64,000 nucleotides of DNA from an uncultured Thiotrichaceae bacterium (GTDB lineage Bacteria > Pseudomonadota > Gammaproteobacteria > SZUA-229), in the NCBI GenBank assembly GCA_964531165.1, contig CAZHEA010000007.1, forward strand, positions 2,956 to 66,955, written 5' to 3'. Of the stretch, positions 161-22,963 are shown one piece after another. Both the position numbers and the translations under genes were made by a program. Every line of letters begins with the position of its first letter. Position 1 is the stretch's first letter. Below the pieces are notes generated by a model. That model was not told where the DNA came from. It was given only the letters and a program-made list of their open reading frames with translations, and made no database searches.

Positions 161-220
161 TTGTATATTAGATGTATCTTATGTATAGTCCGTATTATAG
201 TATATTTTAAATACATCTTT
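161..220 (+). promoter_or_regulatory. Putative sigma70 promoter with overlapping NsrR-type operator half-sites upstream of the globin gene
   Basis: -35 TTGTAT (161-166) and -10 TATAGT (184-189), 17-bp spacer. AGATGTATCTT lies in the spacer at 170-180. TAGTATATTTTAAATACATCTT at 198-219 resembles the gammaproteobacterial NsrR box half-site AAATRCATCTT. It is a degenerate palindrome. Confidence 0.35.
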
Positions 221-235
221 AAAGGAAATCTTTTT

Positions 236-601
236 ATGAGCACTTTATTTGAACGCATTGGTGGTGAAGCCGCTGTAGATCAGGCCGTTGATATATTCTA
301 CCGTAAGGTATTAATGGATGAGCGGGTTAACGGCTTTTTTGATGGCGTTGATATGGATCAGCAGATCAACAAACAAAAAGGTTTTCTGACCATGGCATTT
401 GGTGGCCCCAATAACTATACCGGTAAAGATATGCGCGAAGGTCATAAGCATCTGGTTGCTCGGGGCTTAAATGACAGCCATGTTGATGCCATTGTTGAAT
501 TATTAGGCGCTACGTTGCAGGAGTTGGGTGTGGCGGCAGAGGATATTCAGGAAGTGGCGGATATTGCTAATGGCGCCCGCAGTGACGTGCTTAATAAATA
601 A
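236..601 (+). CDS. glbN: Group I truncated hemoglobin (trHbN/cyanoglobin-like)
   Basis: ~120 aa. Contains the trHb signature F-L-T-M-A-F-G-G-P-N-N-Y-T-G-K-D-M-R-E-G-H-K-H-L (FxxxxGGPxxYxGxxMxxxH). ATG at 236 follows AAAGGAAA. The 161 start in the ORF track adds a low-complexity leader and is unlikely. Confidence 0.8.
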   Translation: MSTLFERIGGEAAVDQAVDIFYRKVLMDERVNGFFDGVDMDQQINKQKGFLTMAFGGPNNYTGKDMREGHKHLVARGLNDSHVDAIVELLGATLQELGVAAEDIQEVADIANGARSDVLNK

Positions 602-633
602 TAAATAGGTAATCCTGTTAAGGAAATATAGTG

Positions 634-1641
634 ATGACGCATATTATTTTTGATGACAAAAAAATTGAGATAGAAGATGGGCAGAGTGTATTGTCTGCGC
701 TGTTAAATCATAACTATGAAATTCCTAATAGTTGTCAGGCAGGTGTGTGTCAAAGTTGTATGTTGCAGGCGGTTGAGGGTGACATACCCGCTACCGCACA
801 GGCTGGGCTAAAAGACACGCTTAAGGCGCAGGGCTATTTTCTGGCCTGCAGCTGCCAACCAACATCACCTCTGAGGGTGGTTGCTGCCAATGATGCTGAG
901 ACACATAGTATGGCAACGGTGATTGAACATGAGCTTTTAAATCAGCATATTTTGCGATTGCGTTTAAAGCCTGCTGCTGATTTTAATTATAAAGCCGGGC
1001 AGTTTATTAATATCTGCAAAACCGACACACTTTCCAGAAGCTATTCACTGGCAAGTGTGCCTGGGCTGGATAATTTACTAGAGCTGCATATTCGACGTAT
1101 TACGGAAGGTAAACTGAGTTCGTGGTTACACGATGAGGTTCACCCCGGTGATGAATTGAAAATTCAACAGGCCAGTGGTGACTGTTTTTATGTGCCGGGT
1201 AACTCACAGCAAAAGCTGTTGTTAGCTGGCACCGGCACCGGTTTGGCACCGCTGATCGGTATTGCCCGTGATGCAATTGCCGGTGATGACGGTGAGGGGC
1301 ATTGTGGCGAGATTCATTTGATTCATGGCGCTAGAACCGAGCAGGATTTATATTTGCACCAGACATTACAGGCAATGGCGAAAAAACATAGCCAGTTTCA
1401 CTATCACACGAATGTGCTTGAAACTATGTCCAATGATGACAGTAGCGGCCAGACATTGCAGCAGCAAATTATGCAGATTATTGTTAATCCTGAAGAATGG
1501 AAAGCCTATCTGTGTGGTGATGCAAAGATAGTTAATCAACTGAAAATGCAGATATTTCTAAAGGGGGTCGCCATGAATCAGATTTATAGTGACCCGTTTG
1601 TGGTATCTGGTGTGGTATCTGGTGTGGTAGCCGGCGAATAG
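634..1641 (+). CDS. [2Fe-2S] ferredoxin-NAD(P)H oxidoreductase (Fd + FNR-like FAD/NAD module)
   Basis: The N-terminus carries a plant-type ferredoxin Cys cluster (CQAGVCQSC...LACSC). It has an RSYSLAS (RxYS) FAD motif and an LLAGTGTGLAPL (GTGxAP) NAD(P) motif. The start could be GTG 631 or ATG 634. The C-terminus ends in a VVSG tandem repeat. Confidence 0.7.
   Translation: MTHIIFDDKKIEIEDGQSVLSALLNHNYEIPNSCQAGVCQSCMLQAVEGDIPATAQAGLKDTLKAQGYFLACSCQPTSPLRVVAANDAETHSMATVIEHELLNQHILRLRLKPAADFNYKAGQFINICKTDTLSRSYSLASVPGLDNLLELHIRRITEGKLSSWLHDEVHPGDELKIQQASGDCFYVPGNSQQKLLLAGTGTGLAPLIGIARDAIAGDDGEGHCGEIHLIHGARTEQDLYLHQTLQAMAKKHSQFHYHTNVLETMSNDDSSGQTLQQQIMQIIVNPEEWKAYLCGDAKIVNQLKMQIFLKGVAMNQIYSDPFVVSGVVSGVVAGE
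1597..1632 (+). repeat. 12-nt tandem repeat (x3) at the 3' end of the reductase CDS
   Basis: tttgtggtatct ggtgtggtatct ggtgtggtagcc encodes VVSGVVSGVVAG. Confidence 0.8.
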
Positions 1642-1747
1642 CCGGCGCTATAAATATATAAATAACGGTAATACAGCATCAGGGATTTGAATTGAATTTT
1701 TTCAAAGTGTGGTTACCTTATTGCAGCGCATACGTTATAGTTTACTT

Positions 1748-2182
1748 ATGCAATTAACACACTACACAGATTATAGCCTGCGTGTACTTATCTTCCTGTC
1801 CCTGCAGGAGCCTGATCAGCGAGTCACTATTTCTGATATCGCCGAGCACTTTCAAATTCCCCGTAACCATCTGGTGAAGGTGGTACACAAGCTGGGCATT
1901 CTAAAAATTATCAATACCACCCGTGGTAAATATGGCGGTATTCGGCTGCAGATGTCAGCCAGCCAGATTTATATTGGAGATGTGGTCCGTAAGATGGAAG
2001 CACGTCTGGATATAGTCGATTGTAACTCGCCGTCACCTTGCCCGATCAAACCCGGTTGCCAGCTAAAATCTATTTTACAGCAAGCCGGAGATGCTTTTTT
2101 AGACGTGTTAGATAATTATACAATTGCAGACCTGCAGCAAAAACCAGATGAACTTAAAACGTTGTTACACTGGTCAGCATAG
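1748..2182 (+). CDS. nsrR: Rrf2-family transcriptional repressor, NsrR-like (NO-responsive)
   Basis: The N-terminus MQLTHYTDYSLRVLIFL matches the Rrf2/NsrR wHTH. The C-terminal region has the three Cys (CNSPSPCPIKPGC) typical of the Fe-S cluster ligands. It sits immediately downstream of the globin/reductase pair. Confidence 0.75.
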   Translation: MQLTHYTDYSLRVLIFLSLQEPDQRVTISDIAEHFQIPRNHLVKVVHKLGILKIINTTRGKYGGIRLQMSASQIYIGDVVRKMEARLDIVDCNSPSPCPIKPGCQLKSILQQAGDAFLDVLDNYTIADLQQKPDELKTLLHWSA

Positions 2183-2228
2183 AATTTGCTGACTGTGGTT
2201 ATGGTGCATGTAACCTGGAGGAAGCAGT

Positions 2229-3059
2229 ATGTCAGATGAACAGGCGGTTGCCTCACATTATGAACATGGCGATTTACTGAATGCGATTAAGCTTTCCCTG
2301 AAAAAACTTAATAAAACGCAACACGATGTCAGTATTGATGATCTGGCGGCAGTTGATGAATTTCATATCGGCGGGCGCATCGCCACACAAAATCTGCTAT
2401 CTCAGTTCGACATTGCTCAGCACCATCATTTGCTTGATATTGGCTGTGGTCTTGGGGGTGCTGCACGCTATGTTGCACAAAAGCATCATAACCGGGTGTC
2501 GGGAATTGACTTAACCGACGAGTTTGTTGCCACTGGAAACGAGCTTTGTGCCTGGGCTAATCTACAGCATAATATAAAACTTTATCACGGCAGTGCGCTA
2601 TCAATGCCATTTGAAAATGCCTCATTCGACGGTGCATACATGATGCATGTAGCAATGAATATTGAAGATAAAGCCGGTTTATTTAAAGAGATTCACCGGG
2701 TGCTGGATAGTGGAGCATGGCTGGGGGTTTATGACGTTATGCGGGTACAGGCGGGCGATTTGTTATACCCGGTCCCCTGGGCGGGTGAGGCGTCAACCAG
2801 TCATTTGGCGAGTCTGGAAAATTATAAACAGGTTATAGAATCTGCGGGTTTTGAGGTGTTATCACAACACAATCGACAGCAGTTTTCGCTGGACTTTTTT
2901 AAACAGTTACAGGAAAAAAATCAGGCAAACGGCGGTCCGCCAGCTTTAGGCCTACATACGCTCATGCAGGAGTCCACCGGTATAAAAATTAAGAATATGA
3001 TTGAAAATATTAGCCGGGGATATATTGCACCGTTTGAATTAACCGCGAGAAAGATATAA
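2229..3059 (+). CDS. Class I SAM-dependent methyltransferase
   Basis: Motif I LLDIGCGLGGAARYV with an acidic residue downstream (GIDLTDEF). Fold-level call only. Confidence 0.6.
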   Translation: MSDEQAVASHYEHGDLLNAIKLSLKKLNKTQHDVSIDDLAAVDEFHIGGRIATQNLLSQFDIAQHHHLLDIGCGLGGAARYVAQKHHNRVSGIDLTDEFVATGNELCAWANLQHNIKLYHGSALSMPFENASFDGAYMMHVAMNIEDKAGLFKEIHRVLDSGAWLGVYDVMRVQAGDLLYPVPWAGEASTSHLASLENYKQVIESAGFEVLSQHNRQQFSLDFFKQLQEKNQANGGPPALGLHTLMQESTGIKIKNMIENISRGYIAPFELTARKI

Positions 3060-3151
3060 AAATCAAATGTGCCATAACCGGCAGCTTTGGTTGTTTATAA
3101 TGGATTGAAAATAAATGGAACCTTTTCGCCTGCTCAAGCGTGTACATATAT

Positions 3152-3730
3152 ATGAACGTGAAAAAACTATGGACTACCCAGCCCTCAGAACAGGATCAGT
3201 TTGAAGCGCTAATTCAGCCGCATCTTAAACAACTTTATAAACTGGCCTATCGCTTTAGCGGCCAACAGCATGATGCAGAAGACCTGGTGCAGGACATTCT
3301 GCTCAAACTCTACCCGCGACTCAAAGAAATGCAGACCATTGAAAAATTGGGTCCGTGGCTGGCCCGTGTGCTGTACCGTCACTTTGTTGATAAATTACGC
3401 AGTAAGCAGCGTGCACCATTACAGCTGGTGGGTGATGATGACGAGAAAATTCTCGAAGACTATAGCGAGCAGTCGCCAGGGCCGGCGGGCACTAAAGAGC
3501 GGAACCTGTTACAGCAGCAATTACAGGAATCTCTGGGTCAGTTGAATGAAGATCAGCGTGTTCTGGTCATTCTGCATGACGTAGAAGGCTACACTCTGCA
3601 GGAAATTCACACAATGTATGACGTATCAATTGGTACGTTGAAATCCCGTTTAAACCGTGCCCGTAGTCGCTTAAGAGAATCATTAAAAAAAATGGAACCT
3701 TTTGAGGCCGGGAGTCGTGTAAATGAATAA
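3152..3730 (+). CDS. ECF (group IV) sigma-70 family sigma factor
   Basis: It has a sigma-2 region (DAEDLVQDILLKLY) and a sigma-4 HTH (LQEIHTMYDVSIGTLKSRLNRAR). It is ~190 aa. Its stop overlaps the downstream anti-sigma start by 8 nt. Confidence 0.75.
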   Translation: MNVKKLWTTQPSEQDQFEALIQPHLKQLYKLAYRFSGQQHDAEDLVQDILLKLYPRLKEMQTIEKLGPWLARVLYRHFVDKLRSKQRAPLQLVGDDDEKILEDYSEQSPGPAGTKERNLLQQQLQESLGQLNEDQRVLVILHDVEGYTLQEIHTMYDVSIGTLKSRLNRARSRLRESLKKMEPFEAGSRVNE

Positions 3731-4415
3731 CAGGATAAGAATTATGAACTGCACAGACATAGACACATTACTTGATGACTACCTTGATCACGATTTGCTG
3801 GTACATGAGCAAAGATCGGTCGAGCTGCATATCAACAACTGCACAGCTTGTCAGCAAAGTTTGAAAGAAGCACAGGCGGTACGTGAAGCATTAGCATCAT
3901 TGCCGCTGGTTGAAGCCTCAGACAACTTTGAAAGCCGGGTGTTTGCTGAAGTGCGTAAACAACATCAGGGTGGTCAGCATGACCGTCGATTTCTAAATGG
4001 TTTTGTTACGGCATTAGCCGCAAGTGTGTTTTTATGGGTAGCTGTACCAATGATTTTTGCACCGCAAGAGTCACTGTCAGGTAGCAATACCATCTCTGTA
4101 GCAATGAATGAAACTCGTCCTGTCAGATTGTTGTTTGAAGCGCCTGATGCAATTGAACAGGTAACGCTAAGTATAGAGTTACCTGCCAATGTTGAACTGA
4201 AAGGTTACCCCGGTCGCAGTCAGCTAAGCTGGAGCACCAGTCTGAAAAAAGGTCAGAACGTTTTGGCGTTGCCGATAAATGCAATAGAGGCGGGTAAGGG
4301 AGAACTAGTTGCCCACCTTAGCTATGGTGACAAAACCAAAACCTATCGATTAATTTTAAAAACTACAGATAACGGCGTGATGAGCTATCAGATTCAGCCA
4401 GTGACATCTGCTTAA
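3723..4415 (+). CDS. Membrane-spanning zinc-binding (ZAS-type) anti-sigma factor
   Basis: Translationally coupled to the ECF sigma. It has an N-terminal H-x3-C-x2-C motif (HINNCTAC). It has a single TM helix (FVTALAASVFLWVAVPMIFAP) followed by a ~110-aa periplasmic domain. An alternative start is ATG 3744. Confidence 0.6.
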   Translation: MNNRIRIMNCTDIDTLLDDYLDHDLLVHEQRSVELHINNCTACQQSLKEAQAVREALASLPLVEASDNFESRVFAEVRKQHQGGQHDRRFLNGFVTALAASVFLWVAVPMIFAPQESLSGSNTISVAMNETRPVRLLFEAPDAIEQVTLSIELPANVELKGYPGRSQLSWSTSLKKGQNVLALPINAIEAGKGELVAHLSYGDKTKTYRLILKTTDNGVMSYQIQPVTSA

Positions 4416-4434
4416 AAAACTTTGGAGAAATATT

Positions 4435-5010
4435 ATGAAAACATTAAGCAAAGCAATTATTTTAGGGCTGGGCATGACATTGCCTTTAGGCGCAATGGCC
4501 GCAGCTGACGACGTAACGATTCGTGTAATGGAGATGAATGAAGCTTCTTCAGATCATGTTATGGAAAATATTGAACTGCCGGAAATGGCTCGTGAGCGTG
4601 CAAAAGAAAGTGCTCAGCATGGTTTAGAGCATGCGAATGACAAGGCGGCAGAGCATAAAGAAAAAATGGATCATGCTGATGAAGATGAAGAGCATGCCAT
4701 GAATAAAGATCGTGACATGGATAAAGAGCATGACATGGATCAGGATCGAGAAATGGACCAGGATCGTGACATGGAACGCGAAATGGAAGAAGATCGTGAA
4801 ATGGAACGTGAGCATGAAGGCGATCGTGATGATAGCGATGTGAATGATCGTATTAATGAAGAGCGTGAAGAGCATGAGCGTCGTGGTGAAGATGGTCCGA
4901 ATAGCCCGGATGATATTGAGCGACCTGAGTTCGACGCTCCGGAAATAGACGTTCCAGAGTTCGATTCGTCTGTTCAGGAAAGACCTGAGCTACGTGGTGG
5001 ACAACGTTAA
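4435..5010 (+). CDS. Secreted, highly acidic His/Met/Asp/Glu-rich repeat protein (function unknown; possible metal-binding)
   Basis: Sec signal peptide (MKTLSKAIILGLGMTLPLGAMAAADD). It is a low-complexity D/E/H/M/R-rich protein. It contains roughly seven tandem DRDME-like pentapeptide units encoded by a 15-nt DNA repeat (4708-4830). A strong terminator follows. Confidence 0.55.
   Translation: MKTLSKAIILGLGMTLPLGAMAAADDVTIRVMEMNEASSDHVMENIELPEMARERAKESAQHGLEHANDKAAEHKEKMDHADEDEEHAMNKDRDMDKEHDMDQDREMDQDRDMEREMEEDREMEREHEGDRDDSDVNDRINEEREEHERRGEDGPNSPDDIERPEFDAPEIDVPEFDSSVQERPELRGGQR
4708..4830 (+). repeat. 15-nt tandem repeat array (about 7-8 units) inside the acidic-protein CDS
   Basis: Units of the form GATCGTGACATGGAA / GATCAGGATCGAGAAATGGAC encode DRDME/DQDREMD pentapeptides. 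Confidence 0.8.
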
Positions 5011-5061
5011 TCTGAAAGCATATGATTTTTAGTTTTTATTAAAAATTGAGCTATGAATAAA

Positions 5062-5093
5062 CCTCCCCCTGCAAATGCAGGGGGAGGTTTATT
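5062..5093 (+). terminator. Rho-independent terminator
   Basis: Perfect 11-12 bp GC-rich stem CCTCCCCCTGCA-AAT-GCAGGGGGAGG followed by TTTATT. Confidence 0.75.
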
Positions 5094-5146
5094 AGTGTAT
5101 GGAAAATCATTTACAGGTAGATGGTATGTTTGGATGTAAAAAGAAT

Positions 5147-6481
5147 ATGAGTCGCTGGTTGTTAATCGCATTACTGTTTGTTTCTATGCAACTAATTGCG
5201 GCGGAAGAAGAAAGTTCAGTGAACAAAAATTTTGCACAGGGTATTAGTTATTTTAAGCAGGCTAATTATAGCAGTGCAGTTAAAAAGTTCGAGTTGGCAC
5301 GTCAACAGGGAAATCGCAGTACCGCACTCTATTACAATCTGGGAAGTGCGTATTATAAATTAGAGCAGTATAAAAATGCCGAACGTTATTTTAGTGCGTT
5401 GATTAAGCAACCGAAGATGAAATCTCTGGCCGAGTACAATCTGGGTCTGATCGCGGTTAAACAAAAAGATTCGCTAACCGCTAAAAAATATTTCCAGTCG
5501 ATTGTAAAAACCAGCCGGGATAAAAAAGTGGTATATCTGGCCAGTCAGCAGTTATCATCATTAGATAGCAAAAGTCTGCCACAAAAAAAATTATCATCAA
5601 AAAAAACCAGGGGTTCAGTCTATCTGAGTGGTAGTCTGGGCTATGACAGTAATATTAATTTCGCGCCTGTAGATATAGGTTCGGAAGAGTCAGGTATGTT
5701 TTTTGATGCGTTGTTATCGGCAGACTATTTGTTTTCCGGTAAGTCTACTGATGGCTGGAGTGTTGAGGGTCTGTTATATACGATTCGTTACGAAGATACA
5801 GGTAACCCTTTAATTCCAAAGGGTGCATTTGATCAGGACGAATATGGTGTCAGTTTGAAGAAAACTCAGAAATTAGCCGGTTGGAATACTCATTTCAAAC
5901 TGGGTTTAGATAAGCTAACCTATGGGGCGAGAGACTATCAGTCAATTCTTAAGCTGGAAGCCCGAGGCCGGCATAGACTTTCAAACACAGACAGAGTTTA
6001 CTTGCGTTATCGCTATGAAGATATTAGTAGCGACGATGTGGTGTTTGATTATACCGAAGGCTGGCGTCAGAAAATCAGAGGCGAGTTTCGTCGTTATCAT
6101 AAAAATAATTATTTTCAGCTTTATTATGAACTGGAGTTGAATGACAGAAATGATCTGGTCAGAGTTGATGCCGTTGATGGCAGTATTAGTGAGTTTAGTT
6201 ATTCACCTACCCGTCATACATTACGTGGAAAATATAATTTAAAATTAAATACCAAATGGGATCTAACCGCCGATCTTGCCTATCGCAAGAGTGATTATCC
6301 TTCAACCAGTACTCAAAATCGTAATGATGATCGTTGGAAAGCTATAGCTTCTGCAAATTATAAACTTGATAAAACAATGAAGTTAAAGCTTAAGCTGGAG
6401 TATACGGACAATGCATCATCAGATGATTTATATGTTTATGACCGGCAGGTTGTTGCGGTTAGTCTGAATAAATTGTTTTAA
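5147..6481 (+). CDS. Outer-membrane protein: N-terminal TPR domain + C-terminal beta-barrel (Slam/DUF560, type 11 secretion-like; tentative)
   Basis: Signal peptide MSRWLLIALLFVSMQLIAA. There are about three TPR units (AVKKFELARQQGN...YYNLGSAYYKLEQYKNAERYF...). A K-rich linker follows. The last ~285 aa show an alternating amphipathic beta pattern and end in the aromatic residue F (..VSLNKLF). Its size (~445 aa mature) and architecture match Slam proteins. The ORF-track start 5099 leaves no room after the terminator, so 5147 or 5126 is preferred. Confidence 0.5.
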   Translation: MSRWLLIALLFVSMQLIAAEEESSVNKNFAQGISYFKQANYSSAVKKFELARQQGNRSTALYYNLGSAYYKLEQYKNAERYFSALIKQPKMKSLAEYNLGLIAVKQKDSLTAKKYFQSIVKTSRDKKVVYLASQQLSSLDSKSLPQKKLSSKKTRGSVYLSGSLGYDSNINFAPVDIGSEESGMFFDALLSADYLFSGKSTDGWSVEGLLYTIRYEDTGNPLIPKGAFDQDEYGVSLKKTQKLAGWNTHFKLGLDKLTYGARDYQSILKLEARGRHRLSNTDRVYLRYRYEDISSDDVVFDYTEGWRQKIRGEFRRYHKNNYFQLYYELELNDRNDLVRVDAVDGSISEFSYSPTRHTLRGKYNLKLNTKWDLTADLAYRKSDYPSTSTQNRNDDRWKAIASANYKLDKTMKLKLKLEYTDNASSDDLYVYDRQVVAVSLNKLF

Positions 6482-6708: not shown

Positions 6709-7188
6709 TTATTTACAGCTTTTAGAGAGCGTGGCTTTGCTTTTGGTAATACGCGCCTGTTTCTCTTTGTCAGACAGATAGGTTATATTTCCATCAGCAT
6801 CTTTGCTTCTAATTCGTCCACGGGATTCCATAGATGCCAGGTTGTTACGAATTTGTTCGCAGTCTGCCATGCGTTGTTTCTTTTCAGCACGGGTTTCTTT
6901 TTCTTCCTCAGGTTCATCCTCTTCTGCTTTAGGTGACTTGGCGGTCTGGGTGTCACTACTTTTAAAGCTTGGACGTTTATAGGATGATGTATCTTTAGGA
7001 GCATATTGCTGCACTTTCATTCTTTCAGAAGATGTGTTGGCAGGGCGCTGCTGAGAATAATGCACGTTTCCTTCATCATCTACCCACTTATATATGCCTG
7101 CATTGCATACTGAAACCAGTAGCATCAGTGTGCTAATAAATATAATTTGACGGATGAAGTGCTTAAAATGTAGCTGATTTAAAATCAT
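6709..7188 (-). CDS. DUF4124-domain secreted protein
   Basis: N-terminal TM/signal peptide then the GIYKWVDDEGNVHYS motif characteristic of DUF4124. The C-terminus is low-complexity and charged. Confidence 0.5.
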   Translation of the reverse strand: MILNQLHFKHFIRQIIFISTLMLLVSVCNAGIYKWVDDEGNVHYSQQRPANTSSERMKVQQYAPKDTSSYKRPSFKSSDTQTAKSPKAEEDEPEEEKETRAEKKQRMADCEQIRNNLASMESRGRIRSKDADGNITYLSDKEKQARITKSKATLSKSCK

Positions 7189-10240: not shown

Positions 10241-11005
10241 TTACAATCGTTTTTTTATTCGCTTTTTTTGTTGTTTCAAGCGTCGCTGCCACCACATCCA
10301 TAAACCACTCAAGCTTAAAAATATCATCAGTATAGCAACACCATCCATAACGTATACACCGAACTTTCCAAAGATGCGACCGCTGTGAATGTCCAGAATA
10401 ATTCGCTCTAGTGGTAAACCTTCGCCCCGGTATTGTTTAAGTAAATCCTGTTTTAAGTTTTCACCTGGCTGAATGTGTGGTGACCATGTCATCTGTATGG
10501 GGGCAATGGCCTGCCAGTTAATAATATCTTCATCAGCCTGCCACATACTCTGATCCATCATTTTTATAATGGCTTTGTTTTCGAGCATGCCGACGTGTTC
10601 TATTTCAGTGTTTTGTGCCAGCGGGTAACGATCAATTAGTTCACCGTCGCGGCTGAGCAAAATAACATCGCGGGACAATACCAGTATGATAATTTCACCT
10701 GCATTGGTCACGCCTCTAATCTGTTGTTTATCGTTGAGAAGTTTTTTATTGTCGAAATAAATTTGTTGATCGAGCTGGGTGAAAATATGTTTTTGCGTTC
10801 GATAACTGATAGCTGCTTGTTGCGGGTTAATTTCATACAGGCTAAGCACCAGCGCATTATTGATTTTAGTTTTGTTGAGTTGTAAACCGTCAGTGTGATT
10901 AAGCATAATGCCGGTCACGGCCAGTAATATAATAAACAGTACCAGTAGCAGGCCAAATCGCCTGTGCCATAAAAACGCCGGAAATTTCTTTTTATGGCGG
11001 GTCAT
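10241..11005 (-). CDS. PepSY-associated TM helix protein
   Basis: N-terminal WHRRFGLLLVLFIIL (PepSY-TM HRW-G motif) and a C-terminal second TM with DIHSGRIFGKFGVYVMDGVAILMIF. It overlaps the upstream FMN-binding gene by 4 nt. Confidence 0.55.
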   Translation of the reverse strand: MTRHKKKFPAFLWHRRFGLLLVLFIILLAVTGIMLNHTDGLQLNKTKINNALVLSLYEINPQQAAISYRTQKHIFTQLDQQIYFDNKKLLNDKQQIRGVTNAGEIIILVLSRDVILLSRDGELIDRYPLAQNTEIEHVGMLENKAIIKMMDQSMWQADEDIINWQAIAPIQMTWSPHIQPGENLKQDLLKQYRGEGLPLERIILDIHSGRIFGKFGVYVMDGVAILMIFLSLSGLWMWWQRRLKQQKKRIKKRL

Positions 11006-11520
11006 TGTTTGGCACGCAGTTGTTGGTCGAGGTAAAGTGCAATGCGGGAAATTTTGGTAATGGCTCGTACTGAAAGTGTAGCACCTGAAATCCCATCTAT
11101 GTGGCGATCCAGCTGTAAGTCATTATTTATGCTTGCCTGTAGAAATTGTTTGGTGAAAAAGTCATGACGTATTTCATCGCCGCGGCTTTCACGAAACGCC
11201 AGAACTTTTATGCTTTCAAGTTTGCCGTGGTTGATAACAACGCCAATGGTAATGGGTTTTTCTTTACCAATTTCATCTAATATCCAGGCGGTTTTTTGCT
11301 GCTGTTTCCAGTAGCGTAAACGCAGTTTTCTAAAATCATGTGCGAGAATTTGTTTAATATTTTCACGGTCAGTTTTGGTGAGCCAGAGTGCTTTGGCTTT
11401 AGGTTGATTCTCTGCAAAGGCTAACTGGATAAATGCATCAGGCTGAAGATACTGACCACCAGCGTAAGCCGGTAGTTGTAAGCAGCACAGAACAATAAAA
11501 ATAAAGCGTGTAAAAATCAT
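11002..11520 (-). CDS. Exported FMN-binding domain protein (ApbE-flavinylated type)
   Basis: Signal peptide. It has the GISGATLS motif (the Thr in S-G-A-T is the covalent FMN attachment site in NqrC/RnfG-type FMN_bind domains). Confidence 0.6.
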   Translation of the reverse strand: MIFTRFIFIVLCCLQLPAYAGGQYLQPDAFIQLAFAENQPKAKALWLTKTDRENIKQILAHDFRKLRLRYWKQQQKTAWILDEIGKEKPITIGVVINHGKLESIKVLAFRESRGDEIRHDFFTKQFLQASINNDLQLDRHIDGISGATLSVRAITKISRIALYLDQQLRAKQ

Positions 11521-11599
11521 GGGGGCGCATCATACCAGTTGTTGGCGAAGTGAGAAACCTACGTGAGCATAATGCATTCGCAGGTTTCTCAGTCGGCAT

Positions 11600-12850
11600 T
11601 TAGAACTGGTAGCCGACTCCCAGCATAAAGCCATCGTCATCCGTGCCTGCCTTATCCAGTAACTGATAGTTTGCTTTCACAACCACATCTTCATGGGGCC
11701 AGTAGCTAAAGCCAAAATCGGTCTGATTGCGCTGTGTATCATTCGCGCTGTTAACCATATTATCCCAGCTGCTCTGGCGTGCATATATACCCCACTGAGA
11801 CGTAAATTTGTAAGAGGGCTCTACATACCAGCCGCTTTGCTCGTCAGAGCCTAGGCTTTTCGGTCCGTTACCGCTTAAGTCCCAGCTCGCATACAGAGCG
11901 CGTAATGCAAACGGTCCGGTTAGCCAAACCGCATGAGTCTCCAACAGGCTCGCACTTCCCGCAGCGGCATCGGTGCTTTGAGTAATATCACGTTGGTACT
12001 GCATAGTCGCGCCCAGTTCTACGCCTGCTGCACCCGTCCATTTCAGGCGTGCTGTGTAGGCAGGGTCCTGCATTGGCGCTTTGCTTACACTGGTACGACC
12101 ACCACGAACAGTATAGTCATCGCCAACCTGTAAGCCGGAATGCATGGCCAGATCATAGCTAAATGCGTCGCCAAAACGGCCGCTGAAGCTCACGCCACCT
12201 TCACGCCAGGTGGTGGGAATAATGTACTTTTCTACATTATTACGCTCAACACCGTAAAAAGTGGGTGGCTCGTGGGTTTCGTTAACCATTCCAACAGGGA
12301 CCAGAATAATACCTGCACGGACTGAGTTATTGTCACTTACATCAAATTCAAGAAAAGCCTGTTCCATGGAAACTTCGCCAGAGCCTTCACCTTCCGTTTT
12401 AACTTGTGAGTGCTCAATTTCCAGTTCTGACCAGAAGCGAATTTTGTCACTGAACTCATGACCCATGAATAAAATAAAGCGATGCAAGTTAATTATTTTG
12501 GTGCTGTCAGTGTTGATGTAATGCAGTTCACCATAACCACCAATCGTAGTATTGCCTTTAGAGCCATGAGTGCCAAAGGTTTTATCGCGTGCTGTTTCTG
12601 CGCTGCTATGACTGTGTGAAGATTGTTCACCTGACGTATTTTGAGTGGGAGATGTATTTATATTACCTGATTCAAGCATATCTGCTGTGGCTTCCAGACG
12701 CTCTAAAATAATTTTGTTTTCTGCTTTGAGGGCATCAAGCTGTAGTTGAAGACTGTCTGATTCTGCTGAAATGGCATTCGTTGATGCCAGTAATAGTGCG
12801 CTGGCAATGGCACTTTTTAAGGTAGATGATACAAATTTACGGCTTTTCAT
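11600..12850 (-). CDS. Outer-membrane porin with N-terminal coiled-coil (DcaP-like family; tentative)
   Basis: Signal peptide. A ~45-aa coiled-coil (LQLQLDALKAENKIILERLEA) is followed by a beta-barrel ending in ..GVGYQF. Confidence 0.5.
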   Translation of the reverse strand: MKSRKFVSSTLKSAIASALLLASTNAISAESDSLQLQLDALKAENKIILERLEATADMLESGNINTSPTQNTSGEQSSHSHSSAETARDKTFGTHGSKGNTTIGGYGELHYINTDSTKIINLHRFILFMGHEFSDKIRFWSELEIEHSQVKTEGEGSGEVSMEQAFLEFDVSDNNSVRAGIILVPVGMVNETHEPPTFYGVERNNVEKYIIPTTWREGGVSFSGRFGDAFSYDLAMHSGLQVGDDYTVRGGRTSVSKAPMQDPAYTARLKWTGAAGVELGATMQYQRDITQSTDAAAGSASLLETHAVWLTGPFALRALYASWDLSGNGPKSLGSDEQSGWYVEPSYKFTSQWGIYARQSSWDNMVNSANDTQRNQTDFGFSYWPHEDVVVKANYQLLDKAGTDDDGFMLGVGYQF

Positions 12851-22018: not shown

Positions 22019-22963
22019 ATGAAGTACATGTTTTTACTGTTCATTCTATTAACCAGTTCTTTCAATTTAATGGCCGATGCATTTCTTGACGGCTTTAAGG
22101 CTCAAAAAATTAATTCGACGGTTTATGTCATTCATGGTCCCCGTGAATTACCCAATGCAGCCAATCGCGGTTTTATGAATAATCCGGCTTTTATTATTGC
22201 GGATAAAAGTGTCATTGTTGTTGATCCCGGTTCAAGTCAGCAAACCGGTAAAATGCTAATGCGTGAAATTAAAAAAGTAACAGATAAGCCCGTCTCGCAT
22301 ATTTTCAATACCCATGTTCATGGCGATCACTGGTTAGCAAATGATGTTATTAAGCAGAGCTATCCGAAGGTAGAAATTATTGCTGATTCGCGGATGATAA
22401 AAAAAGCCAGAGCCGGTGCAGCGCAATCATGGATAGATACGATGATGAAAATGACAGAGGGTGCAACCAAAGGCACTAAAATAGCGTATCCGAAAACCGG
22501 TGTTAGTGATGGTAACCAGTTAAATATCGCCGGCTTAACATTTAATATTCATACTATCGGTGTTTCCCACAGTGATTCGGATATTATGATTGAGTATGTA
22601 GAAGGCTCGACTTTTTTCACCGGTGATAATGTCGGTAACTTAAGAATATTGCGTATGAGCGATGGTAGCTTTAGAGATATTATTAAGGCGCTGGATCGAG
22701 CAATTAGTTTGAAGAAACAGTTTTACGTTCCAGGGCATGGCCCAAGTGGCGATGTTAAACTGGTTGAATTGCAGCGTGAATATTTTAATACGCTGTACAC
22801 CATGGTTGAAACATTCTATGAAGAAGGTCTGGAAGACTTTGAAATGAAGCCGAAAATCGAAGCGGCGTTAAGCAAATTTAAAGGTTGGTCCGGTTTTGAG
22901 CATGAACTGGGCAAACATATCAGTCTGGCGAAGCTGGAAGTAGAGAAGGCGGAGTTTGAGTAA
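22019..22963 (+). CDS. Periplasmic MBL-fold metallo-hydrolase
   Basis: Signal peptide. HxHxDH motif (NTHVHGDHW) plus downstream His/Asp ligands. Confidence 0.6.
   Translation: MKYMFLLFILLTSSFNLMADAFLDGFKAQKINSTVYVIHGPRELPNAANRGFMNNPAFIIADKSVIVVDPGSSQQTGKMLMREIKKVTDKPVSHIFNTHVHGDHWLANDVIKQSYPKVEIIADSRMIKKARAGAAQSWIDTMMKMTEGATKGTKIAYPKTGVSDGNQLNIAGLTFNIHTIGVSHSDSDIMIEYVEGSTFFTGDNVGNLRILRMSDGSFRDIIKALDRAISLKKQFYVPGHGPSGDVKLVELQREYFNTLYTMVETFYEEGLEDFEMKPKIEAALSKFKGWSGFEHELGKHISLAKLEVEKAEFE

Follow-up and report, generated by a model that had tools for sequence, protein, structure and literature searches.

The closest described counterparts of the locus presented here are the Slam, or type 11 secretion (T11SS), systems, in which an outer membrane (OM) protein consisting of a periplasmic N-terminal TPR domain and a 14-strand β-barrel is encoded beside its secreted client and operates with no dedicated ATPase; membership of the family is defined by a match to PF04575 (DUF560) (PMC8406197). 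Slam/T11SS and related systems still pose the question of how proteins get across the OM with no energy source. In AlgE, an electropositive lumen is matched to a polyanionic, unfolded substrate, and in the cases of RcsF, which passes through OmpA/C/F, and of the curli pair CsgG-CsgA, a disordered segment occupies or crosses a barrel lumen without ATP. On the regulatory side, the locus can be compared to SigW-RsiW of Bacillus subtilis, an ECF sigma factor paired with a membrane ZAS anti-sigma that is under regulated intramembrane proteolysis.

We analyzed a 64,000-nt stretch of DNA from an uncultured Thiotrichaceae bacterium (GCA_964531165.1, contig CAZHEA010000007.1, positions 2,956-66,955, forward strand), referred to below as the window. 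ORF analysis of the window confirmed that region 3152-6481 carries, as the original prediction had proposed, a module of four co-oriented genes on the + strand, coding for a sigma factor, an anti-sigma factor, an acidic secreted protein (g3) and a TPR-barrel OM protein (g4). The features of the region are the following:

3117..3143, +: P1, candidate ECF-type promoter, GGAACCTTTT-N12-CGTGT; motif conserved before the sigma gene
3152..3730, +: ECF (group 4) sigma factor, 192 aa; matches to Sigma70_r2, Sigma70_r4_2 and Sigma70_ECF
3694..3720, +: P2, second copy of the P1 motif, GGAACCTTTTGAGGCCGGGAGTCGTGT, embedded in the last sigma codons
3733-3736, +: Shine-Dalgarno sequence (SD) of the anti-sigma gene, AGGA
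3744..4415, +: RsiW-like membrane ZAS anti-sigma, 223 aa; zf-HC2, TM and periplasmic sandwich
4435..5010, +: g3, ORF for a secreted polyanionic disordered protein, 191 aa; no Pfam family
4435-4500, +: g3 signal peptide, with the cleavage site between AMA and AADD
4513-4581, +: g3 conserved 23-aa N-terminal motif, VTIRVMEMNEASSDHVMENIELP, present in 50/54 orthologues
4582-5007, +: g3 acidic low-complexity tail, which contains the 6-aa repeat array
4698-4808, +: g3 18-nt tandem array (6-aa repeats)
5056..5093, +: perfect 17-bp GC-rich stem-loop followed by UUUAUUA (-33.7 kcal/mol, z -7.1)
5147..6481, +: g4, OM protein, 444 aa; signal peptide, TPR domain, barrel and C-terminal Phe
5213-5575, +: g4 periplasmic 3-TPR domain, residues 23-143
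5612-6478, +: g4 14-strand β-barrel, residues 156-444 (289 aa)

The four genes form a conserved cassette of marine Gammaproteobacteria. Their order is kept in 53 of 68 assessable loci from different species, and the sigma and anti-sigma genes lie directly upstream of the barrel gene in 53/68, a linkage that is far beyond chance; the flanking genes are unrelated from locus to locus. This strong co-occurrence answers the concern, raised with the original prediction, that homologues of the four genes might never occur together. Among 939 ORFs at 82 loci, the only recurring neighbor families were the barrel, the sigma factor, the anti-sigma, g3 and HHP, another small acidic secreted protein; no TonB or TonB-dependent receptor (TBDT) family and no Cop, Cus, Sil or other metal gene recurred near the cassette, and no protease gene was conserved in its neighborhood. 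Glycosyltransferase or synthase genes did not recur at the approximately 80 loci inspected for them. HHP takes the place of g3 beside the barrel in one derived subclade, where g3 is gone along with the sigma and anti-sigma genes, a joint loss that may point to a functional link between g3 and the regulators as well. In loci L068, L071 and L078, g3 and g4 remain paired without an adjacent sigma gene.

The first gene encodes an ECF sigma factor, as initially proposed, judging both by its domains, with sigma-2 and sigma-4 being the only ones found in the profile search (Sigma70_r2, 54.6 bits; r4_2, 46.9 bits), and by its score against TIGR02937 (99.8 bits, cutoff 42.9); no equivalog model (SigE, SigW, SigM etc.) matched it at its cutoff. 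The second gene product likewise displays the zinc motif, single TM and periplasmic domain attributed to it. Residues 1-75 make up a cytoplasmic domain that matches zf-HC2 (24 bits, cutoff 22.2), and are followed by one TM (~85-107) and by a periplasmic Ig-like β-sandwich (116-208). The zinc ligands are C3, H29, C33 and C36, of which the last three are invariant and C3 nearly so, and an N-terminal anti-sigma domain with this H-x3-C-x2-C motif places the protein in ZAS class I; both its fold and its profile are similar to those of RsiW.

A candidate autoregulatory promoter of the AAC...CGT type precedes the sigma factor's own gene; upstream of 3152, where an AAC-N16-17-CGT-like motif had been looked for, it has the form AAC-N17-CGT. 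This motif, P1, is found before sigma in 38/53 loci, versus about 1 expected. The T of its CGT is located 11 nt before the sigma ATG, with no SD, and the CGT-to-ATG distance amounts to 10-12 nt in 21 loci; since P1 thus abuts the start codon, we infer that the sigma mRNA is leaderless. The second copy, P2, occurs in 37/53 loci, versus about 0.5 expected. Its offset to the sigma stop codon varies in frame, and in three loci (L054, L058 and L065) it is intergenic, which indicates that P2 is conserved at the DNA level. P2 would drive the anti-sigma gene, g3 and g4. P1 and P2 are the only occurrences of the full motif in the 64-kb window, and the regulon appears to be confined to the cassette itself.

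These observations modify the original description of the module in several respects. The promoter sought upstream of 4435 is absent, and the motif scan across loci detected none before g3 or g4; the second copy lies instead in the 3' end of sigma, upstream of the anti-sigma gene. The anti-sigma had been assigned a start at 3723, overlapping sigma, and its translation had been considered as coupled to that of sigma. Because P2 would drive the anti-sigma gene from within the sigma 3' end, we place its start at 3744, where MNCTD opens the protein in all orthologues, and in this arrangement the gene does not overlap sigma and has its own predicted promoter. Further downstream, g3 and g4 are separated by 136 nt that harbor a strong hairpin. 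This stem-loop is unique within the window, and in 45/47 loci g3 is followed by a hairpin with a folding energy of -12 kcal/mol or below, with T-runs behind it in many. We interpret it as a putative terminator or attenuator; its conservation leads us to expect less read-through into g4, and hence much g3 and little g4.

The description of the third gene product as a secreted, highly acidic repeat protein of 191 aa is borne out by its signal peptide, composition and tandem array. At this locus the mature protein contains 37% D+E, 5% H and 7% M, carries a net charge of -39 and displays (D/E)(R/H)(D/E)M repeats. What is conserved among orthologues is the signal peptide, the 23-aa N-terminal motif, which is the sole conserved sequence block, and the disordered acidic tail. 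Tails reach up to 222 aa and vary widely in length and repeat type; none contains Cys, hydrophobic residues account for a median of 8%, and 43/48 are predicted to be disordered from their position in the charge-hydropathy plot. Neither Pfam nor NCBIfam has a match for g3. Its tail is of low complexity and, as had been remarked, there is no canonical C-terminal 8-strand T11SS barrel.

The AF2 model of g4 (pLDDT 91.5) has 7 helices spanning residues 2-143 and, after them, 14 strands spanning 156-443, and agrees with the proposed N-terminal TPR domain and C-terminal barrel; the two are joined by a basic linker. The strand count, together with the TPR domain, is as in Slam. The best structural matches are the 14-strand proteins CymA and OmpG, with BcsC, PgaA, PelBC and AlgE also among the fold matches, and lumen-facing residues sum to a net charge of +12 in the predicted model. 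At the sequence level, g4 matches BBP2_2 (PF10082, putative beta-barrel porin 2) with 30 bits (cutoff 23.7), the alignment covering only its last 66-70 residues and positions 309-374 of the 378-position model. BBP2_2 matches 53/53 barrel family members, and a literature search on this family returned nothing relevant.

The assignment of g4 to Slam/DUF560 did not survive these comparisons. PF04575 gave no match to g4 of this locus at E up to 1 (hmmscan), does not figure in the 25 families most often matched by the 53 barrel members, and is absent from the precomputed domains of the 120 homologues listed. The TPR_Slam profile (PF24575) scored 18.4 bits against g4, below its cutoff of 35.2, and its sub-threshold matches in 32/53 members are no stronger than the matches of generic TPR families. 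Slam cargo is folded and ends in an 8-strand TbpBBD barrel, whereas g3 is a disordered polyanion whose conserved element is N-terminal. Since DUF560 does not match, the partner lacks a T11SS cargo domain and TonB or receptor genes do not recur nearby, we do not regard g4 as a T11SS member, and consider it very improbable that it is a true but divergent one with g3 as non-canonical cargo, even if the modeled architecture, the adjacent gene for a secreted partner and the weak TPR_Slam matches could be read in this way. The cassette also differs from Slam/T11SS (Slam1/2, NilB, HrpB) in being ECF-regulated and in its occurrence in free-living and symbiotic marine Gammaproteobacteria, Slam being found mainly in host-associated pathogens. 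By analogy, its architecture and logic would nevertheless work like those of Slam/T11SS, in that a TPR domain and a 14-strand barrel would serve the exported protein encoded next to them, with no dedicated ATPase.

The original prediction had also named a BcsC/PgaA-type polysaccharide porin as an option that would overturn it. AlgE, BcsC, PgaA and PelB, as TPR-associated OM pores for (poly)anionic polymers, share with g4 the combination of TPR domain and barrel, but they have 16-18 strands instead of 14 and g4 has only 3 TPRs, TM-scores to BcsC are low (0.33-0.38), and glycosyltransferase/synthase genes are missing from all of the approximately 80 loci. We thus regard an exopolysaccharide porin with an unrelated g3 as extremely improbable; the putative substrate of g4 is a polypeptide.

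The relationship between g3 and g4 was explored through their charges. Over 48 species, the charge of the g3 tail is anti-correlated with that of the g4 lumen, whose residues were assigned by strand parity in a single predicted g4 model (Spearman rho -0.77, p 2e-10; independent contrasts -0.50, p 0.001), and with that of the TPR domain (rho -0.52; contrasts -0.38). Among the controls, lipid-facing residues, periplasmic turns, the anti-sigma periplasmic domain (rho -0.21; contrasts +0.09) and sigma yielded nothing significant. This is a correlation over related loci, and instead of direct contact between the two proteins it may stem from a common adaptation, to local ionic conditions for instance, which the null controls make less probable. 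We consider it strongly supported that the g3 tail co-evolves in charge with the lumen and TPR domain of g4, and not with the anti-sigma, and this covariation supports the dedicated barrel-partner relationship proposed at the outset.

We propose, with a probability of approximately one half, that the locus is an autoregulated envelope-signaling cassette with its own two structural genes as conserved output, and in which g4 serves g3 as a dedicated conduit or holder matched to it in charge. The sigma factor would recognize both GGAACCTTTT-N12-CGTGT copies; from P1 it would produce its own leaderless mRNA in a positive feedback loop, and from P2 it would add transcription of the RsiW-type anti-sigma, as negative feedback, and of g3, with the hairpin keeping g3 high and g4 low by reducing read-through. 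Exported by Sec as a Cys-free, disordered polyanion, g3 would dock through its N-terminal motif on the g4 TPR domain, and its acidic tail would thread into, and probably through, the barrel, after which g3 may be surface-exposed or released as a cation-binding polyanion. Induction would follow regulated proteolysis of the anti-sigma in response to an envelope signal, as for RsiW. In contrast to SigW-RsiW, the cassette is Gram-negative, its anti-sigma carries an Ig-like periplasmic domain, two sigma-dependent promoters are predicted, of which P2 lies within the sigma gene, a leader is probably missing from the sigma mRNA, and the regulon seems not to extend beyond the cassette. Overall, the original interpretation is partly supported: a self-contained, signal-regulated module combining an ECF/ZAS pair, an exported acidic protein and a TPR-barrel OM protein stands, while the T11SS membership and, as discussed below, the link to metal handling do not.

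The alternatives to a conduit or holder differ in what they make of g3. If it buffered metal in the periplasm in the manner of SilE/PcoE (Cu/Ag bound via His/Met, hard cations via Asp/Glu) and g4 were a co-regulated porin for metal or efflux with no g3-g4 contact, which was the fallback of the original prediction, one could account for the acidic Met/His repeats of this locus, reminiscent of SilE, PcoE and the CopB N-terminal regions, for the EMEQEHE-type repeats in many orthologues, for the HHP proteins (10-14% Met, DMxxDM repeats, N-terminal HH) and for hosts from metal-rich vent and sediment habitats. The His/Met richness that had suggested metal handling is, however, lineage-specific (orthologue medians of 4% H and 2.5% M, with some tails rich in Pro or built from DDK or DEP repeats), g3 belongs to no Pfam family, copper/silver resistance and other metal genes do not recur nearby, and neither the lumen- and TPR-specific covariation nor an N-terminal motif as the only conserved sequence would be explained; we thus consider this reading unlikely. 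It is also doubtful that g3 acts as a ball-and-chain gate, anchored by its motif on the g4 TPR domain and reversibly plugging a cation- or anion-selective pore from the periplasm with its tail, so that g3 would not be exported and g4 would be a regulated channel. The covariation and TPR evidence would fit such a gate equally, a 14-strand pore is narrow and could be gated or plugged rather than a translocon, and no energy source for g3 export is evident at the cassette; the conserved hairpin, however, implies a large excess of g3 over g4, which is odd for a 1:1 plug, tails of up to 222 aa extend far beyond what a pore about 4 nm long would need, and tail length and repeat type vary strongly.

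A role of g3 as periplasmic co-regulator of the anti-sigma, comparable to RseB on RseA or CpxP on CpxA, with the motif binding the β-sandwich, the tail sensing cations and g4 as stress-response output, appears quite improbable. The sandwich is a well-conserved Ig/cohesin-like domain of protein-binding type, g3 is predicted to be co-transcribed with the anti-sigma from P2, and g3 was lost with both regulators in the HHP subclade; nonetheless, its charge does not covary with that of the anti-sigma domain, and g3 and g4 persist in the three loci that have no adjacent sigma/anti-sigma genes.

If g4 is indeed a conduit or holder, g3-g4 and HHP-g4 may represent an undescribed OM pathway for disordered polyanionic proteins, a proposal that we make tentatively and with the odds against it. 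The TPR domain would capture the N-terminal motif, and an electropositive 14-strand lumen tuned to its client would pass or hold the chain without ATP; seawater Ca/Mg bound on the outer side might ratchet it outward. Such a pathway would have an origin separate from that of DUF560 T11SS and be under the control of its own ECF circuit, in which the sigma mRNA lacks a leader and the second promoter is intragenic. RcsF-Omp and CsgG-CsgA are unrelated to this pair in sequence and fold; g3, unlike RcsF, is not a lipoprotein, and the g4 barrel is dedicated and carries a TPR domain. With a client as simple as an unfolded polyanion, and a pore charge that tracks that of the client, the pair would lend itself unusually well to the study of passive or ratcheted threading. 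To this is added an unusual ECF circuit design, with a sigma mRNA that is probably leaderless, a second predicted promoter inside the sigma gene and a putative attenuator that would set the partner:pore ratio.

Low-complexity partner proteins like g3 evade family-based annotation. The family is widespread, with approximately 700 clusters at 50% identity, and its carriers are free-living and symbiotic marine Gammaproteobacteria, with host lineages in metal-rich vent and sediment habitats. Cultured Microbulbifer species also have the cassette, which makes these hypotheses directly testable.

The four co-oriented open reading frames were confirmed in the window, together with two copies of an ECF-type promoter motif:

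3117-3143, + strand: P1, promoter before the sigma gene, GGAACCTTTT-N12-CGTGT
3152-3730, + strand: sigma factor gene, Sigma70_r2 and Sigma70_r4_2 domains
3694-3720, + strand: P2, second copy of GGAACCTTTT-N12-CGTGT, inside the 3' end of the sigma gene and before the anti-sigma gene
3744-4415, + strand: anti-sigma gene
4435-5010, + strand: g3, encoding a secreted acidic protein with a signal peptide cleaved between AMA and AADD
5147-6481, + strand: g4, encoding the TPR and beta-barrel protein (the barrel), with TPR matches and a BBP2_2 (PF10082) match

With 99.8 bits the sigma factor clears the 42.9-bit cutoff of TIGR02937, the model for the ECF superfamily, but it reached the cutoff of no equivalog model, and the anti-sigma gene carries a zf-HC2 domain (24 bits, cutoff 22.2). 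No Pfam or NCBIfam family matched g3, whose mature product has a net charge of -39 (37% D+E, 5% His, 7% Met); an imperfect tandem array with an 18-nt unit occupies 4698-4808 of its DNA. The BBP2_2 match of g4 is confined to its last ~70 residues, and a literature search for PF10082/BBP2_2 returned nothing relevant.

The barrel protein is one of a large family that lacks annotation, with 231 relatives in a word-index search and 705 representatives of 50%-identity clusters (E <= 1e-30) in an exhaustive profile search. When one genome per species was scanned, 80 loci were recovered, mostly from uncultured marine, vent or symbiont Gammaproteobacteria, but also from cultured Microbulbifer and Woeseia. 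Cultured carriers of the cassette include M. harenosus CGMCC 1.13584, M. thermotolerans DSM 19189 and M. yueqingensis. Among the 68 loci with sufficient upstream sequence, 53 carry sigma and anti-sigma genes directly upstream of the barrel on the same strand, and a g3-type ORF fills the gap in nearly all of these. The four-gene cassette is thus conserved, and the co-occurrence implied by the original prediction of a single module is confirmed in other genomes. Flanking genes vary from locus to locus, and clustering of 939 neighbouring ORFs yielded only five recurrent families, namely the barrel (81 loci), sigma (55), anti-sigma (54), g3 and HHP (15), the latter being a small secreted acidic protein that adjoins some barrels.

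Several other genes were seen near the cassette in the window. Those immediately upstream (161-3059) encode a truncated bacterial globin, a 2Fe-2S/FAD/NAD reductase, an Rrf2-family regulator and a SAM methyltransferase, and together resemble a module for nitrosative or oxidative stress; a convergent DUF4124 gene (6709-7188, - strand) encodes a secreted product with a Lys/Glu-rich tail. Neither is conserved beside the cassette in other species. PepSY_TM and FMN_bind genes, and after them an ORF for a porin-like product of 416 aa that has a signal peptide (10241-12850, - strand), bear no relation to the cassette as far as checked.

The cassette contains two conserved sigma-type promoters. In the 53 cassette loci, the strict form of the motif was observed 38 times upstream of sigma, against ~1.0 expected (P1), and 37 times at the 3' end of sigma or shortly before anti-sigma, against ~0.5 expected (P2). 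An ECF-type promoter had been anticipated before both sigma and g3; the former is present at P1, whereas no such motif precedes g3, or g4, in any of the loci scanned. P2 is conserved as DNA and not as protein, since it stands at different offsets from the stop codon of sigma (36, 27, 45, 54, 37, 31, 52 and 29 nt) and is wholly intergenic in L054, L058 and L065. P1 and P2 are the sole full matches to the motif in the 64-kb window; a weak third, promoter-like match at 22463 was rejected, being inside an ORF with a metallo-beta-lactamase fold.

In the window, the sigma ATG lies 11 nt past the T of the -10 CGT of P1, with no Shine-Dalgarno (SD) sequence. This distance is 10-12 nt in 21 loci, where the intervening bases are variable and lack an SD; leaders measure 20-100 nt in more distant clades. 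Such spacing and variable, SD-less bases are what a leaderless mRNA would be expected to show, which suggests that the sigma transcript is leaderless, beside an SD-led anti-sigma. The conserved MNCTD start of the anti-sigma follows P2 by 24-28 nt, with an AGGA/GAGG SD in between; the window anti-sigma therefore starts at 3744, and the overlap with sigma that had been proposed is not borne out.

The spacer between g3 and g4 holds a perfect 17-bp stem-loop (-33.7 kcal/mol, z -7.1), and a strong hairpin, often followed by a T-run, is found at the equivalent position in 45 of the 47 loci whose spacer was usable. Its conservation implies that production of g3 exceeds that of g4. The stem-loop is unique within the window and is not a dispersed REP element, and no Rfam family reached threshold (best ncr1175, 27.7 bits, cutoff 60). 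Upstream of it, at the end of g3 (4998-5026), there is a sigma-70-like promoter match (TGGACA-17-TATGAT, 10/12); in this region such matches are no more frequent than in shuffled sequence.

The anti-sigma is RsiW-like: in its AF2 model a helical anti-sigma domain (1-75) and a TM segment precede a periplasmic beta-sandwich (116-208) predicted with confidence, and H29, C33 and C36 are invariant, with C3 nearly so. Its C-terminal tail, YQIQPVTSA, was considered as a TPR ligand or degron and dropped, being conserved in the closest clade only.

The g3 orthologues share a signal peptide and the motif [VILAF]-T-[ILMV]-x-[VLIM]-[MILV]...[ILV]-x-[LV]-P (50 of 54; VTIRVMEMNEASSDHVMENIELP in the window), followed by tails of 58-222 aa made of lineage-specific low-complexity repeats (DEP, DDKDD, EMEQEHE, PE/PA types). 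Tails have median contents of 32% D+E, 4% His, 2.5% Met and 8% hydrophobic residues, none contains Cys, and 43 of 48 fall within the disordered region of the charge-hydropathy plot. The g3 family is therefore characterised by its polyanionic, predicted disordered nature and not by His/Met richness; metal handling, which had been put forward for the module as a whole, does not extend to the family, and a metal sponge is possible for the window g3 and for HHP. A word-index search with the N-terminal 74 aa of g3 found nothing. The exact window protein is absent from a collection of 15 billion proteins in which its three neighbours are present, and its gene was called on Logan contigs; low-complexity partners of this kind appear largely invisible to standard protein resources.

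The AF2 model of g4 (pLDDT 91.5) predicts seven helices forming three TPRs (2-143), a low-confidence basic linker, and a barrel of 14 strands (156-443); the periplasmic turns are short and the C-terminal residue is Phe. In its TPR part g4 is similar to peptide-binding modules of three repeats, for example those of YbgF, IpgC and HOP; the barrel has no sequence-related solved structure, and no Slam structure was among the PDB matches listed. According to PMC8406197, the defining features of T11SS are PF04575, a barrel of 14 strands, cargo with TbpBBD and neighbouring TonB/TBDT genes. The cassette shares the architecture alone: the predicted TPR and 14-strand barrel agree with the Slam/DUF560 assignment of the original prediction, but g4 has no DUF560 match and its TPR_Slam score of 18 bits is below the cutoff of 35. 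TonB, TonB-dependent receptors and copper/silver genes are likewise not recurrent among the 939 neighbouring ORFs, nor are polysaccharide synthases, so that a BcsC/PgaA-type exopolysaccharide porin does not apply. The g3-g4 system would work like a Slam/T11SS pair, yet lacks the sequence, cargo and context features that define that family.

The TPR domain and the lumen-facing strand residues of the barrel, assigned from a single predicted model, are basic (net +14 and +12 in the window, respectively; family median +6 for both), and lipid-facing residues are approximately neutral. Net charge of each region was compared with that of the g3 tail.

Charge of cassette regions against g3-tail net charge (48 loci; contrasts on the sigma + anti-sigma tree; n.s., not significant)
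Lumen-facing residues: rho -0.77 (p 2e-10), -0.79 per residue; contrasts r -0.50 (p 0.0012)
TPR: rho -0.52; contrasts r -0.38 (p 0.010)
Linker: rho -0.47; contrasts r -0.33 (p 0.022)
Lipid-facing residues: rho -0.25 (n.s.); contrasts r about 0 (n.s.)
Periplasmic turns: rho -0.23 (n.s.); contrasts r -0.24 (n.s.)
Anti-sigma periplasmic domain: rho -0.21 (n.s.); contrasts r about 0 (n.s.)
Sigma: rho -0.11 (n.s.); contrasts r about 0 (n.s.)

Barrel and partner therefore covary in charge. This specific, compensatory covariation is correlative, and is the pattern expected if the TPR domain and lumen directly accommodate the g3 tail. In the mechanism that we propose, proteolysis of the anti-sigma would induce the cassette, the N-terminal motif of g3 would dock on the TPR domain, and its tail would thread into or through the g4 pore, g3 possibly ending as a surface or released cation-binding polyanion.

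Barrels without the sigma cassette adjoin HHP, an unannotated family with the mature N-terminus HHPAADIVDPEVYAMIEEN...FDDMG followed by acidic repeats (DMTRDMAGDM; 10-14% Met), a composition that recalls sequences which bind Cu(I) or scavenge oxidants. HHP genes occur in two settings:

L018:5468-5794 (-), L035:5379-5825 (-), L049:5481-5807 (+): HHP beside sigma-less barrel paralogues
L017:3405-3635 (-), L019:882-1289 (-), L046:3582-3905 (-): HHP divergently upstream of sigma

An ECF-like motif lies 61-81 nt before the HHP ATG in the second group and was not found at HHP genes of sigma-less loci. The barrel tree makes the full cassette the ancestral state and places loci with both cassette and HHP basal to a derived HHP-only subclade; HHP has therefore replaced g3, and the converse idea, an ECF pair added to an older unit of barrel and small protein, is reversed. 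The g3 and HHP cores have no detectable homology (hhalign probability 0.1%).

Variants of the cassette were also observed. L068, L071 and L078 carry g3 and the barrel without adjacent sigma or anti-sigma, and in L077:3176-7203 the barrel gene is divergent from sigma, anti-sigma and g3 on the opposite strand. The cassette of L045, a MAG labelled Verrucomicrobiae, is nearly identical to that of the gammaproteobacterial MAG L047, which may reflect a binning error or horizontal transfer; g3 tails in both are Pro/Thr/Gly-rich (RPDTTG repeats) and not acidic. In Microbulbifer yueqingensis (L076:1225-8946), the whole cassette is present in two tandem copies, each with its promoter motifs.
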